Part shown: piece after piece, positions 28,576 through 40,579 of the stretch
Layout of the letters: each line of letters begins with the position of its first letter
Numbering within the stretch: the first letter of the stretch is position 1
Origin: a virus
DNA length: 44,771 bases
Virus genome (UHGV): UHGV-0180729
Strand: one strand, 5' to 3'
The notes under the pieces: generated by a model
The model's input: the letters and a program-made list of their open reading frames with translations, nothing else
What the model was told of the DNA's origin: nothing
Databases searched by the model: none
Made by a program: the position numbers and the translations under genes

Positions 28576-28580
28576 AACTA

Positions 28581-28603
28581 AGGCCCCTTTCGGGGCCTTT
28601 TTC
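28581..28603. terminator. Bidirectional terminator
   Basis: AGGCCCC TTTC GGGGCCT followed by TTTTTCTT on the plus strand and a U-rich tract on the minus strand. Confidence 0.7.
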
Positions 28604-28834
28604 TTACTCATCAATGTTACTCCTGTACTCCTGTAACTTCTCCAGACTTTCAATTGCTTCCGCTAAGTCGGTTCCGGTATCCTTGTGACCGCGCAAGCCC
28701 ATGCACAATAGCTTCTTCAATGCGTGCTGTAGCGCCGGGTCCCGGATGTCGAAAGCACGGAGAACATCATAAACGTCTACTGTCATAGTGCTGCCGTGAA
28801 TGTTTGTCATTGTGCGGTTGTATTTTGAAGTCAT
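28604..28834 (-). CDS. Hypothetical protein (inverted cassette)
   Basis: 76-aa ORF, ATG 28834 with GAGGAGAG Shine-Dalgarno; ATGA overlap with upstream gene. Confidence 0.5.
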   Translation of the reverse strand: MTSKYNRTMTNIHGSTMTVDVYDVLRAFDIRDPALQHALKKLLCMGLRGHKDTGTDLAEAIESLEKLQEYRSNIDE

Positions 28835-29064
28835 AAATAGCTCTCCTCTATCAGAACGATAACTGCCGAAATAGCAACAGTACCTACGTATAAAAGACGC
28901 ATCTCGGTCGGCGCTATCGCGGTAACAGCTTCGTACAGGCCCGAGAACACGGACAAATCCATAGAGATAAAGGCCAAGACCGCCGCCATGCCTAGCACCG
29001 CGGCAGCCAAAACCAGTAAAATCACAAACGGCATTATGACTAAAATCTGCAAGGCTTTAATCAT
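28831..29064 (-). CDS. Small membrane protein with two predicted TM segments (inverted cassette)
   Basis: ILVIMPFVILLVLAAAVLGMAAVLAFI and VGTVAISAVIVLI hydrophobic segments. Confidence 0.5.
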   Translation of the reverse strand: MIKALQILVIMPFVILLVLAAAVLGMAAVLAFISMDLSVFSGLYEAVTAIAPTEMRLLYVGTVAISAVIVLIEESYL

Positions 29065-30191
29065 CCCAGCATCTCCGGTGAAATAGTTAAACGTGCGACC
29101 TCACCATATTCGGCGCTATAAGTAACTACATTTGCACTACGGCCTGACATCCACCCGCCGCGGGAGGCGTAGGCGTCTTTAGCCGCTAAGGTGCGGTGTT
29201 GCTCAACAATCATGTTACGGCTTTCTACAATCTTTTGGTGGTGTAGATGTCCGACATGCGCGTAGCTGTAAACGCTCTCGCCGAACGCTTTGCGGAACTT
29301 GGCAATCATAACCGGTTCGATAGCGTCGAATCGTGCTTTATGCCCGTGATGGAAGAACAGCGTAGTTTTGCCGTGTTGTACCATCTTGTAAACATCCGGC
29401 GACGTATCGACGAACACACGAGGCTCATTGTCGTACAGCGTACTGAACATCTCAGCTAACCAAATCATTCCGCTTTCGTCGTGGTTCCCCTGCACGATAA
29501 GTAAGCGGACATTTTTATGCTTAACCAGCGCCATATCAATAACACGGCGAACCATGCGAATCATGTAGCGGACCAGTTTCTGATAGCGCGTGTCAGCGTC
29601 AAGAACATGACCACTCGCTGGTGTAACGGCATCCAGACTATCGAAGTGAGCGAGGTCACCCAGAAGGTTAATAACTCCTGTTCCCGCATCCGGTGCTTTC
29701 TGAAACGCCGCGTCAAACCAGCGAGAGAACAGGTCTTCCGCAATCTTCATGTCCCAGTCGTCGCCACTCTCGTCAGCCCAGGCCAGCATACCGAGATGGA
29801 AATCAGATACAGTGTAAAGATTAAGTAGCTTGTCGTCTCGTTTGGTGCGGGTCGCTTTAACTGGTGCAACCGGTGTAATCTCCGACTTCATACCCTCGAT
29901 TACGGCTTTCATCAACTCGACCTGACGTTCGGCGTCAGTGTCTGTCTTAACCCATTGCAGTTTAGTGTTGCCGAACTCGTCCACAAGTGACGACGTTCCT
30001 TTAATCTTGTAGCCGTCTGGTACAAGGTGGCTGACGTCGCGCCCGTGGCCTACGCCTTTCTTAGCCAGCTTCGCTTTACGAATACGAATTACGCGGTCTG
30101 AGATGCCGTATTTACGGGCGATGTCTACATTCTTCATTCCGGCGTTCAATTCTTCCTGTAACTGCTCGTCGGTTATTTTCTTCTGGGCCAT
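29061..30191 (-). CDS. Helix-turn-helix domain fused to a calcineurin-like metallophosphoesterase
   Basis: N-terminal HTH (NVDIARKYGISDRVIRIRKAKL); metallophosphoesterase motifs SDFHLG, LLGDLAHFD, VQGNHDE, FFHHGH, HVGHLHH. Confidence 0.65.
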   Translation of the reverse strand: MAQKKITDEQLQEELNAGMKNVDIARKYGISDRVIRIRKAKLAKKGVGHGRDVSHLVPDGYKIKGTSSLVDEFGNTKLQWVKTDTDAERQVELMKAVIEGMKSEITPVAPVKATRTKRDDKLLNLYTVSDFHLGMLAWADESGDDWDMKIAEDLFSRWFDAAFQKAPDAGTGVINLLGDLAHFDSLDAVTPASGHVLDADTRYQKLVRYMIRMVRRVIDMALVKHKNVRLLIVQGNHDESGMIWLAEMFSTLYDNEPRVFVDTSPDVYKMVQHGKTTLFFHHGHKARFDAIEPVMIAKFRKAFGESVYSYAHVGHLHHQKIVESRNMIVEQHRTLAAKDAYASRGGWMSGRSANVVTYSAEYGEVARLTISPEMLG

Positions 30192-30229
30192 GCTTACTTC
30201 CTCGTGTTTAGGATTTGTCCTATAGTAGC

Positions 30230-38325: not shown

Positions 38326-38337
38326 AGAGGACTCTAT

Positions 38338-40413
38338 ATGTCAAGCGGATGCGGTGACGTTTTAAGCCTGGCGGATTTACAAACCGCCAAAAAACACCAG
38401 ATTTTCGAAGCCGAGGTTATCACAGGTAAATCCGGCGGGGTTGCTGGCGGTGCGGATATTGATTACGCGACCAATGCTGTTACGGGTCAGACACAGAAGA
38501 CGCTCCCGGCAGTGTTACGTGACGCCGGTTTTACTTTCGCTGATTTCGATTTTTCAACGGGCGGGACGCTAAGTGACGCGGACAGGATATCTTTAGTCTT
38601 GTGGCCTGAGTCATCCGGGGGCGATGGCAACTACTACCAATGGTTGGGGGTGTTACCTAAAACAATACCAGCTATGTCTTCCCCAGGTTCATCTGGGGGT
38701 ATTGGCCCTGCTGCGTGGAAAGTAGTTGTTGGTGTTGGATTTCTCCTTACCGCTAATGCTTTTTCAGAAATAGCGGATGCCGGGTTACAGTCACTAGCCT
38801 TGTCTCACCTCGGGCTATCTGAAATTAGCGGACTATCCAACATAACGTCGGCGTCTGGGGTTTCTGCGCAAAGATTGTCATCCGGGTATAATTTCATAGG
38901 GCTGTCAACATCGGAAAATGTAATTAATAGTAATGTTGATGCCATAAAAGACCCGGAAACTGGATTATTTTGGGTGTATGAAGGCGTTATTTCGTCACCG
39001 GTATCCGTTCCATCTGGCACTGTTCCTCCTGCCCAACCGTTAGCAAGATACACGTCTACTAATTGGAGGTGTGTAGGGTTACTTAACGGATACAAGGAGA
39101 CAAACGCTAAAAATTACGGCGCTAAATGTGATGGGGTAACTGATGATTACTACTCCTATCAGTTGGCGCTGTACCACACTAAAAGCCGCGTAACACATGT
39201 TGGCGACGCAAGAATTGCCACATCTACGCTTATTAAACCCGTAGGAGTGAGTATTGTAGGTGCATCCGGGTACGTAGGTGCGCAGCTCGGTATTAATATC
39301 CCGGCTACAACTTTCACGTTTGACGGACCGTTTGGGAAGGATACATACGCTATCGATAACGGAGAGAGCGCGGGTACTGAAGATTCCGGTAGGGTCCAGT
39401 ATGTGTATCTCCGTGCGGTAAATGACTCCAAGGATAATCTTAGTGCAGTAAAATTGACCAAAGCCGGGCAACTGATGGATTGCGGAATTTTAAATTTCTG
39501 GAACGGTGTTAAATATGACGGAGGGAGCGCCTACGTCCAAATCCACAGAAATAATATCAACTCCTGTAACTGCTGTATTGATGCCGCGGGCAGTGAGTCA
39601 CACATCACCAACAACCACGGATATAATGACAGTCTACGTACTTCTGCACAGTTCAGACCTGCTATTCTTATCAGAAGTGCTGGTAACATCGTTACTGAGA
39701 ATAAATTCTTTGGCGACGGGGCAAATACACCAAAAGGGGTAGAGATATGGGGGCCCGGTAATGTGGTGGCAAATAACGTTTTTGACGCTTTTACTGACAT
39801 TGGTGTCCTGATAACCTGCAATGATGCCTCTGTCCTGCCAGATAATAATTTAATATCAGGAAACCAGATTACGGGTATTGGTGATTCGTCTGATGTGGCT
39901 AATACATTCAGAGCGGGGGTAGTGGTAAGCAATTCCGGTGCAGGGGCCGGGACTATAACGGGAACTGTTATAACCGGCAACAGCATGTACAATCGTAGAA
40001 CAGACCGGCAGATGCAGTACGGGGTTGTGATAAATGCAGTATCTGGTTCTCTTCCTGATTCACGGACCATATACAACACTTTGATTACCGGAAACACTTT
40101 CGGATTCGGGATTACTGGTCGTAAAGTGATTGCTCTTGGGGCTAACCATTCAGGAAGCAGAAGTAACAATAACTCCGGAGTTATTACCGAAGCAATTGGG
40201 AGTGGTGCATACGCAAACGGTGCAGTAATACCGCATGGGATGTCGAGGCCACCAGAGTTCATAGAGTTCACTCTTATAGATTCTGGTTCTCCTGTTGCAA
40301 TTTCATTCTCTGCGGTAACTGATACAACATTTACTATTATAATCAGAGATTCGTCCGGTGGCATAAGTGGTACCCGCGCCGTTTCCTGGAAGGCGTCCAG
40401 ATTAACCCCATAA
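38338..40413 (+). CDS. Tail fibre / tailspike with right-handed beta-helix (pectate-lyase-like) domain
   Basis: 691 aa; NAKNYGAKCDGVTDDYYSYQLAL matches the N-terminal signature of pectate-lyase-fold proteins; repetitive Gly/Asn/Ile/Thr-rich rungs. Confidence 0.6.
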   Translation: MSSGCGDVLSLADLQTAKKHQIFEAEVITGKSGGVAGGADIDYATNAVTGQTQKTLPAVLRDAGFTFADFDFSTGGTLSDADRISLVLWPESSGGDGNYYQWLGVLPKTIPAMSSPGSSGGIGPAAWKVVVGVGFLLTANAFSEIADAGLQSLALSHLGLSEISGLSNITSASGVSAQRLSSGYNFIGLSTSENVINSNVDAIKDPETGLFWVYEGVISSPVSVPSGTVPPAQPLARYTSTNWRCVGLLNGYKETNAKNYGAKCDGVTDDYYSYQLALYHTKSRVTHVGDARIATSTLIKPVGVSIVGASGYVGAQLGINIPATTFTFDGPFGKDTYAIDNGESAGTEDSGRVQYVYLRAVNDSKDNLSAVKLTKAGQLMDCGILNFWNGVKYDGGSAYVQIHRNNINSCNCCIDAAGSESHITNNHGYNDSLRTSAQFRPAILIRSAGNIVTENKFFGDGANTPKGVEIWGPGNVVANNVFDAFTDIGVLITCNDASVLPDNNLISGNQITGIGDSSDVANTFRAGVVVSNSGAGAGTITGTVITGNSMYNRRTDRQMQYGVVINAVSGSLPDSRTIYNTLITGNTFGFGITGRKVIALGANHSGSRSNNNSGVITEAIGSGAYANGAVIPHGMSRPPEFIEFTLIDSGSPVAISFSAVTDTTFTIIIRDSSGGISGTRAVSWKASRLTP

Positions 40414-40418
40414 AACTA

Positions 40419-40439
40419 AGGCCCCAAACGGGGCCTTTT
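40419..40439. terminator. Bidirectional terminator
   Basis: AGGCCCC AAAC GGGGCCT followed by TTTT. Confidence 0.7.
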
Positions 40440-40441
40440 CT

Positions 40442-40579
40442 CTACTCTTCTGCCAACTTCTCAAGTACAAACGCCAGTTGCGCATTAGCGGCGTCTCTTT
40501 GCTGCCGCAGTCGTAGAACCTCTTCTTCTAGTTCCTTGATACGTTTTTGTAATGCCGGAATCGGGGCTATGATGTTCAT
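40442..40579 (-). CDS. Small coiled-coil protein (45 aa), last gene of the minus-strand replication operon
   Basis: MNIIAPIPALQKRIKELEEEVLRLRQQRDAANAQLAFVLEKLAEE; ATGA overlap with the Toprim gene. Confidence 0.35.
   Translation of the reverse strand: MNIIAPIPALQKRIKELEEEVLRLRQQRDAANAQLAFVLEKLAEE

Follow-up and report, generated by a model that had tools for sequence, protein, structure and literature searches.

Near-identical hairpins 3′ of stop codons in a Kagunavirus-like phage genome are probable intrinsic terminators, two of them predicted to serve convergent genes on both strands

The UHGV virus genome UHGV-0180729 (44,771 nucleotides, referred to here as the window) is the essentially complete genome of a Kagunavirus-like E. 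coli siphophage of the Guernseyvirinae, and it carries a family of near-identical GC-rich hairpins placed just 3′ of stop codons. Judged by their anatomy, their conservation and the public annotation of relatives, these elements are very probably Rho-independent (intrinsic) terminators, and the two best copies, at 28576-28603 and 40414-40441, are predicted to work bidirectionally at junctions between convergent genes. The elements are real and ordinary, and they are already known, as the set is annotated in relatives. The GenBank record of phage Shashou (MK931440) places terminators on both strands 3′ of the tail tube gene and of the tailspike gene, and plus-strand terminators 3′ of the Ig-like gene and of the major capsid gene, while the record of vB_EcoS_CEB_EC3a holds two terminator features and the Golestan paper lists 13 predicted terminators (PMC7203180). 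The terminators of Shashou and CEB_EC3a occupy the same positions as those in the window, with the same hairpin, the same GC stem between an A-tract and a T-tract, and the same convergent stops; the window differs in having its own loops (TTTC and AAAC), another tailspike upstream and an interrupted A-tract, none of which is essential.

Results

Hairpins filling the gap between convergent stop codons

At the first of the two junctions, the element (28576-28603, both strands) takes up the whole 28-nt gap between the stop codon of the plus-strand major tail gene (28573-28575) and that of the minus-strand open-reading frame (ORF) 28604-28834 (28604-28606). At the second, the element (40414-40441, both strands) takes up the whole 28-nt gap between the stop codon of the plus-strand tailspike gene (40411-40413) and that of a minus-strand 45-aa ORF, 40442-40579 (40442-40444). 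Both copies have the stem AAGGCCCC/GGGGCCTT, at 28580-28587 and 28592-28599 around the loop TTTC and at 40418-40425 and 40430-40437 around the loop AAAC, and the RNA of either strand gives the same 8-bp hairpin, AAGGCCCC/GGGGCCUU. Folding of 28576-28603 gave -15.4 kcal/mol on the plus strand and -22.0 kcal/mol on the minus strand, with no shuffled sequence equally stable, and folding of 40414-40441 gave -15.5 and -18.0 kcal/mol, respectively, with few or no shuffles equally stable. The T tails at 28576-28603 are TTTTTCTTA on the plus strand (from 28598) and TTAGTTTTA on the minus strand. Counted after the stem, the plus-strand tails read UUUUUCUUA at the 28576 site and UUUUCUCUA at the 40414 site, where TTTTCTCTA follows GGGGCC at 40436, and the minus-strand tail is UUAGUUUUA at both, also read as TTAGTTTTAT at both.

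The two copies belong to the top direct-repeat family of the window (D1), with 83% identity over 42 nt between 28571-28612 and 40409-40450, and their identity starts 2 bases ahead of the stop codon and runs to the end of the stem (CATAAAACTAAGGCCCC-N4-GGGGCCTTTT). The motif lies far beyond chance: GCCCCNNNNGGGGC (GCCCC-N4-GGGGC) occurs 4 times in the window against 0.01 expected, a count reached in no shuffle, and for GGCCCCNNNNGGGGCC (GGCCCC-N4-GGGGCC), with up to 1 mismatch allowed, 3 occurrences compare with 0.03 expected. Identity also reaches past the stem: two sites share CATAAAACTAAGG (13 nt), and a third shares AACTAAGG. The flank AACTAAGG, which reads CCUUAGUUUU on the opposite strand, was found 4 times over both strands (1.36 expected), with three of the four adjoining a GGCCC(C) hairpin and the sole copy lacking one, at 9052, lying inside coding sequence.

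A first-pass annotation of the window had described this family at four places, after the major tail gene (28576-28606), the tailspike (40415-40442), the Ig-like gene (21541-21567) and, as a close variant, the portal gene (19283-19305). The sequences there are as it gave them, and its reading of them as terminators agrees with what was found, as all four sites combine a GC stem and tetraloop with a T-rich tail just 3′ of a stop codon and are conserved in relatives, and orthologous sites are annotated as terminators in a public record. It overlooked the convergent-gene setting of the two best copies, and with it that the common AACTAAGG flank in part reflects bidirectionality at convergent junctions, as well as two further members, 1003-1036 and 33674-33705, which were found by a wider hairpin search. 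Across the family, the stems have 6-8 bp with 4-6 GC pairs and folding energies of -13.8 to -22 kcal/mol (z-scores to -5.3), a U-rich stretch comes right after the stem (weaker in the portal tail), and every site lies 0-12 nt past a stop codon. Two of the sites stand at convergent junctions of core genes and one before a promoter-like site, and the portal and 1003 hairpins stand inside co-directional operons.

Convergent genes flank 28576-28603, 40414-40441 and 33674-33705, and do not flank the 19283, 21541 and 1003 sites. At the two 28-nt elements a U-tract follows the hairpin on both strands, with the A-tract interrupted. This setting explains part of the AACTAAGG flank, since AAGG lengthens the stem and AAAACT complements the U-tract of the opposite strand. 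Promoters in the window are sigma-70-like (TTGACA-17-TATAGT), which points to transcription by the host polymerase, for which intrinsic termination is the expected mechanism.

Conservation and loop inversion in relatives

Relatives were compared at ~260 loci, for which the major tail protein, helicase and primase served as anchors, with the addition of 82 stretches carrying exact motif matches, nearly all in 41-45 kb contigs and with at most 3 copies per genome. The stem is conserved across the ~260 loci, and the element is present in about 780 public genomes. The major-tail hairpin is kept in 65+ relatives, and the GGCCCC stem 3′ of the major tail gene is retained down to ~70% identity of the major tail protein. 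Concerted evolution of the two copies was considered and rejected, as no homogenisation was seen: relatives at 70-80% identity have GGCCCC versus GGGCC stems, and the loops of the window copies differ.

At the convergent sites, the loops of relatives occur in reverse-complement pairs, with TTTC in 24 and GAAA in 12 unique contexts, AAAC in 14 and GTTT in 8, and TTCC in 2 and GGAA in 1, and both orientations were present within an identical flank background in four separate backgrounds. The loop of the co-directional portal hairpin never flips (GAAA in 20 of 20 related contexts), nor does that of the co-directional 1003 type, for which ~37 related contexts gave TTCATT in 34 and its reverse complement in 0; these counts of flipping come from contexts that are not phylogenetically independent. 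In Jersey-like contigs (e.g. L107) the inversion spans the whole element, as reverse complementation of the window sequence TAAAACTAAGGCCCCTTTCGGGGCCTTTTTCTTA gives exactly their stop-to-stop 34-mer, TAAGAAAAAGGCCCCGAAAGGGGCCTTAGTTTTA. The two arms assort independently, with A-stem-B′, B-stem-A′, A-stem-A′ (locus L019, a perfect palindrome) and B-stem-B′ (locus L013) all present, and each hairpin arm travels with its adjoining gene.

Loop inversion within a perfect stem is a known signature of inter-strand template switching (PMC8794818), and the present case resembles the events described by Monttinen and Loytynoja in that a four-nt loop is replaced by its reverse complement in an unchanged perfect stem. 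It differs from the rRNA loop inversions reported by these authors in 2022, which were rare and mostly involved partly self-complementary loops (PMC8794818), in that fully asymmetric loops (GAAA/TTTC and AAAC/GTTT) flip repeatedly, and only between convergent genes. A literature search on terminator loop inversion returned nothing relevant. We infer that inversion is tolerated at the convergent sites as both strands are read there.

Taken as an explanation of the whole family, the elements would be read by the host RNA polymerase, with the stem-loop forming in RNA from either strand, so that a single element could end a late structural transcript as well as the oncoming early or replication transcript and prevent collision and antisense read-through. 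The copies would be alike as one conserved cassette, inherited and exchanged within the Guernseyvirinae. The perfect palindromic stem would permit inversion of the loop and at times of the entire 34-bp element from stop to stop, with template switching during replication as the likely route, and such inversions would be tolerated only where both strands are transcribed. Termination itself, and its bidirectionality in vivo, are in this account predictions from anatomy, conservation and the public annotation of relatives.

Several points weigh against it. The minus-strand U-tract UUAGUUUUA is interrupted, the upstream A-tract AAAACTAAGG being broken by CT to give the minus-strand U-tract UUAGUUUU. 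In a consensus scan, 28580-28599 was returned as terminator-like on both strands and 40418-40437 on the minus strand; the tail that follows the 8-bp stem of the latter on the plus strand (TTCTCTAC, at 40438) failed the T-tract rule of the scan. The AACTAAGG arm is also found at 1003-1036, a site whose next gene runs in the same direction and for which no transcription of the opposite strand is expected, so the flank cannot be explained solely as a reverse U-tract; the arm is part of a conserved cassette, or serves as an upstream A-tract, regardless of opposite-strand transcription. The contrast in flipping between the two classes of site is subject to the phylogenetic dependence noted above, and no transcript 3′-end or termination-efficiency data for this phage group were found in the literature.

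Hairpins at module junctions

Homology breakpoints were taken as the endpoints of BLAST homology between the window and all loci. At the major-tail hairpin, 66 endpoints fall within 15 nt (genome-wide maximum per 50 nt, 67; 99th percentile, 38), the Ig-like-gene hairpin has 27, and the tailspike hairpin has 12, all at 40410-40412. No homology endpoints were found at the portal, 21840, 24231 and 8475 hairpins. At the major-tail site, one upstream type of 3′ end of the major tail gene pairs with five unrelated downstream sequences, and all four combinations of the U0/U5 and D0/D2 flanks are present, indicating that recombination has occurred between the flanks. The tailspike site gave 34 unique contexts in which a common right flank follows 34 different tailspike 3′ ends, with TAAAACTAA kept in 25, and the tailspike stop codon is where homology with the window sets in for more than 100 public Kagunavirus genomes.

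The fate of the tailspike terminator during domain exchange could be traced in one case. The receptor-binding part of the window tailspike (aa ~141-691; 38758-40410, plus strand) has a single homolog in a collection of 50,697 phage records, the tailspike of the 148.8-kb Justusliebigvirus KKE7M (L265:1501-3138), with 87% identity in amino acids and ~88% in DNA. The N-terminal anchors of the two proteins are unrelated and the DNA homology ends exactly at the stop codon; this match is a recent cross-family transfer of a receptor-binding domain. Past the stop codon KKE7M has a different terminator, AACCCCGC-TTAG-GCGGGGTT (CCCCGC-TTAG-GCGGGG), and the idea that the tailspike terminator travels with the receptor-binding domain was therefore rejected for KKE7M. 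In this one traceable case the terminator is part of the recipient backbone and not transferred cargo. The 31-mer TAAAACTAAGGCCCC-N4-GGGGCCTTTT was also found 3′ of unrelated receptor-binding genes in Agtrevirus SKML-39, phage Bas81 and an N4-like contig. Shared receptor-binding domains between the sampled Kagunavirus tailspikes and the receptor-binding genes of SKML-39, Bas81 and locus L079 were looked for and rejected, as only a linker at aa ~100-170 is common.

Morons, a concept of Juhala and Hendrix, are accessory genes inserted in phage operons together with a promoter and a terminator of their own. Relatives of the window follow this layout: their accessory minus-strand genes after the portal, Ig-like and tape measure genes have a conserved promoter-like region at the 5′ end and always end in a AAGGCCCC-N4/5-GGGGCCTTAGTTTTA hairpin, and the HNH gene of the window (33719-34549) shows the same pattern. 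Most relatives have such a minus-strand gene after the Ig-like gene, with a two-way hairpin at its end. The two principal copies of the window differ from morons in that they end core operons. A minus-strand accessory gene was also seen right after the portal gene in many relatives (L036, L022, L021, L121, L029 and L017), ended by a two-way AAGGCCCC hairpin; Shashou (MK931440, 3357-3878) annotates this post-portal gene as a DNA polymerase III sliding clamp. Locus L036 has a hybrid of the two-way and the window-type portal hairpins (GGCCCC-GATA-GGGGCTTTCTTATAG), as would result if recombination between the two hairpins had removed the insert.

In T4-type phages, repeated cassettes of a promoter and a stem-loop (PeSLs) mediate the shuffling of modules (PMC2839356, PMC4122927). 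The present elements resemble the PeSLs of Arbiol et al. (2010) and Comeau et al. (2014) in being a short repeated motif with a terminator-like stem-loop that borders variable genes, with breaks in homology and indels at the motif. They differ in that PeSLs are composites of an early promoter and a stem-loop that flank hyperplastic regions as direct repeats, whereas the element here is 28 nt without a promoter; the spacers consist of the hairpin alone with no promoter-like hexamers adjoining, and the promoter of the accessory cassettes in relatives is at the opposite end of the inserted gene. Variable segments have a hairpin at one border and none at the other, and an arrangement of accessory insertions between two hairpins was rejected, the hairpin being present at the 3′ end only. 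Recombination between copies in the manner of PeSLs is only suggested, by the hybrids L019, L013 and L036.

A further parallel is the 'motif three' of Witte et al. (2023), a conserved predicted terminator 3′ of tailspike and receptor-binding protein (RBP) genes that was proposed as a recombination hotspot (PMC10408124). Motif three is ~20 nt long, non-coding, located 0-19 nt past the RBP stop codon and shared by different phage genera behind receptor-binding domains that are unrelated (PMC10408124), and the present element agrees with it in length, in being non-coding, in position and in terminator anatomy, being kept behind unrelated domains in Kagunavirus, SKML-39, Bas81 and the N4-like contig. 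The two are probably not the same sequence, given the different hairpin of KKE7M.

These results bear on whether the hairpins, besides terminating, also anchor recombination, the shared 20-30 bp offering homology to phage or host recombinases for module swaps and for the gain and loss of accessory genes. We consider this a tentative possibility. The breakpoints concentrated at the major-tail, Ig-like-gene and tailspike hairpins are what such a role would produce, as are left and right arms that assort independently with their adjoining genes (L019, L013), the L036 hybrid expected from a deletion between two hairpins, accessory inserts that always end in the AAGGCCCC-N4/5-GGGGCCTTAGTTTTA hairpin, and the 31-mer behind unrelated receptor-binding genes; the phage encodes a Gp2.5-like annealing protein, and Witte et al. 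proposed the same for their terminator motif 3′ of tailspike genes (PMC10408124). However, viable recombinant junctions are to be expected at or inside the hairpin because the hairpin is the entire intergenic region, so that selection for intact genes alone would put the surviving junctions there. Equally strong pile-ups stand at hairpin-free boundaries (e.g. 34425, 41075, 30550 and 2225), the portal, 21840, 24231 and 8475 hairpins are without breakpoints, the KKE7M homology stops at the stop codon before a different terminator, and some breakpoints lie ~15 nt inside the major tail gene, outside the stem (ATTAGCTACGCG variants). Breakpoints thus coincide with hairpins, and a causal role of the hairpins in recombination is not shown by this coincidence.

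The first-pass annotation had proposed that the family marks operon ends and serves as modular punctuation of the genome, possibly at recombination junctions, and it had suggested scanning related genomes for module boundaries at these elements. The modular-punctuation reading is right in outline. The homology breakpoints fall at three hairpins, those of the major tail, tailspike and Ig-like genes, but pile up equally at many gene boundaries that have no such hairpin, so that coincidence with junctions stands and causation does not follow. The description as operon ends does not extend to the portal hairpin, which is flanked by co-directional head genes, is followed by a weak T tail and carries no breakpoints.

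A stronger proposal is that the hairpin is a recombination and inversion hotspot that shapes the mosaicism of the Guernseyvirinae, its stem driving template switching and providing microhomology for module exchange, also across families, with the flip-flop of the loop as an undescribed signature of bidirectional use. This too may be so, and we hold it as doubtful.

Other members of the hairpin family

The Ig-like-gene hairpin (21541-21569, plus strand) is a predicted unidirectional terminator 3′ of the Ig-like gene 21083-21541, with the structure AACTTAGGCCCC-GAAA-GGGGCTTTTTAG, in which one pair is G-U, and with a T tail that is good only on the plus strand (TTTTTAG, from 21563). The portal hairpin (19283-19305, plus strand), between the portal and head morphogenesis genes, is AGCCCC-GAAA-GGGGCT followed by the tail TTCTTATAG; it folds at -13.8 kcal/mol, its weaker tail also reads TTTCTTATA, and its probable role is weak or partial termination or the stabilisation of RNA. 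At 1003-1036 (minus strand), the additional member TTTAACTAAGGCCC-TTGATT-GGGCCTTTTTAC lies 12 nt past the stop codon of the Gp2.5-like gene, folds at -13.8 kcal/mol and has the tail TTTTTAC. It was considered as a third convergent site and rejected, as the next gene is also on the minus strand and the plus-strand ORFs in 40-980 are without family matches.

The second additional member, at 33674-33705 on both strands, is a two-way hairpin, AAAGGCCC-TTTC-GGGCCTTT or, alternatively, AATAAAGGCCC-TTTC-GGGCCTTTATT, between the tape measure gene (plus) and the inserted HNH gene (minus). It is a member of D1 (64%), folds at -18.3 kcal/mol on the plus strand and -25.1 kcal/mol on the minus strand, and is missing from most relatives, in which the tape measure gene adjoins the next tail gene; locus L006 has the same hairpin with its loop inverted to GAAA. 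The HNH insert, 33719-34549, has no counterpart in most relatives and puts a strong two-way hairpin in the middle of the tail operon. A promoter-like sequence at 34360-34387 (TTGGCA-16-TAAACT), upstream of the next tail gene, might restore downstream transcription.

A further hairpin at 24898-24915 (plus strand), ACGGCCC-TTCG-GGGCCGT, separates ORF 24540-24893 from ORF 24930-25109, folds at -15 to -17 kcal/mol and lacks a U tail. Its stem is akin to that of the terminator family; termination here is unlikely, and it may be an mRNA-stabilising or processing hairpin. Other terminators of the window, at 5409, 7705, 8475, 15915, 21840 and 24231, have different stems. None of the hairpins matched an Rfam family when the whole window was scanned at gathering thresholds.

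Alternative explanations of the family

Intrinsic termination by a shared cassette was weighed against three other accounts of the family. In the first, independent terminators would have been optimised to a common strong design without shared ancestry, as a GC-rich stem with a tetraloop is generic for E. coli-type terminators. The different stems at 5409, 7705 and the four other sites named above, taken to mean that several designs work, are compatible with it. This convergence is improbable, since identity reaches positions outside the stem (CATAAAACTAAGG and AACTAAGG), the exact 26-nt pattern occurs 82 times in viral contigs, nearly all of one subfamily and at no more than 3 copies per genome, and the same 31-mer stands 3′ of receptor-binding genes in unrelated phage families.

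In the second account, the hairpins would be 3′ stabilisers against exonucleases or processing sites at the RNA level rather than terminators, an idea that applies especially to the portal and 24898 hairpins. The portal hairpin lies within the co-directional head operon with a poor U tail (UUCUUAUAG) and strictly keeps its GNRA loop GAAA on the transcribed strand, and 24898-24915 is without a U tail. For the family as a whole we regard this account as unlikely, as the major-tail, tailspike, Ig-like-gene, 1003 and 33674 hairpins have U-rich tails right after the stem and the two convergent hairpins are located where termination is functionally needed.

Finally, a small mobile palindrome of the REP or MITE type, or a site bound by a homing endonuclease, recombinase or other phage protein, is highly implausible: the elements are multi-copy, palindromic, present in both orientations and found at insertion points of HNH and accessory genes, but every copy is directly 3′ of a stop codon and oriented to give the upstream gene a U tail, no target-site duplications in the alignments, terminal repeats past the stem, copies inside genes or varied positions of the REP/MITE kind were seen, and a 28-nt length with a variable loop suits a terminator better than a protein recognition site.

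A candidate structured RNA and promoter-like families

Directly after the Ig-like-gene terminator, the stretch 21631-21865 (plus strand) may encode a structured, apparently non-coding RNA. It begins with the promoter-like TTGACT-17-TAAGCT, which bears a TGn extension (21631-21659); the ~200 nt downstream of this site end at a terminator, 21840-21859, just before the ribosome-binding site of the spanin gene. The ~200-nt stretch has 97-99.6% identity across ~30 Kagunavirus contigs, with flanks at ~90%, and diverged paralogs (80-90% identity) are present in the early region of some relatives (e.g. L223:8960-9259:- and L205:596-895:-). Covariation was seen in its helices, at 38-97 (CG/UA/AU) and 48-86 (UA/AU/GC), and one hairpin occurs as GGGAC/GTCCU, GGUGC/GCACU, GGGGC/GCCCU and GUGCC/GGCAC. 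The copy in the window has GTACT for GTCCT, which abolishes one hairpin. Shashou annotates a 36-aa ORF at this place, which is broken or without an ATG in several relatives. The candidate has no Rfam match, and a literature search on small RNAs in this phage group returned nothing relevant. This candidate RNA may deserve more attention than the terminators.

Two promoter-like families were also seen. On the minus strand, TTGAC(A/T)-17-TATAGT (D2) occurs at 1737-1774, 5110-5147 and 42947-42984. On the plus strand, TTGCAC...TAATAGGGTACTATTCA (D5, D6) occurs at 5160-5182, 8562-8603 and 10297-10338, and its reverse complement precedes the minus-strand inserts of relatives after the Ig-like gene.

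Genes around the hairpins

Gene functions near the hairpins were assigned by PHROGs. On the plus strand these are portal (17791-19272), head morphogenesis (19309-20385), the Ig-like gene, a Hoc-like Ig-domain head decoration protein (21083-21541), the major tail or tube protein (27403-28575), tape measure (31476-33665) and tailspike (38338-40413), together with an Rz-like spanin at 21884-22270; on the minus strand they are a block with a repair exonuclease (28604-30523) and the HNH endonuclease (33719-34549). Also on the minus strand are the Gp2.5-like single-stranded DNA-binding gene (1049-1675) and the replication block, which starts with the 45-aa ORF 40442-40579, followed by a primase-like ORF and a helicase. 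A literature search on Jerseyvirinae terminators returned nothing relevant.

The plus-strand ORFs 40-525, 438-749, 580-882 and 810-980 have no family matches, and the start of the window cuts a minus-strand gene beginning at ~995, with an N-terminus like MSYLFLDFETFSEADLKKVG as seen from relatives. Next to the major-tail hairpin, the match of the 76-aa ORF 28604-28834 (minus) to PHROG 2452 is confined to the C-terminal third of the family (positions 150-220 of 235), and the adjoining 77-aa ORF is without a match; at the same position, K1G has an ORF of 184 aa. The region 28604-29064 (minus) may be a truncated or split gene at a mosaic junction.

Conclusions

The present elements leave the current understanding of phage transcription unchanged. 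If general, the restriction of loop inversion to sites between convergent genes, together with the assortment of arms, would offer a cheap sequence-only indicator of bidirectional use. As probable terminators, the elements delimit the transcription units of this phage, namely the late head and tail-tube genes, the small minus-strand operon, the tail genes with the tailspike, and the replication genes. For host-range engineering it is useful that the tailspike hairpin marks exactly where the exchangeable tailspike cassette ends on the right.

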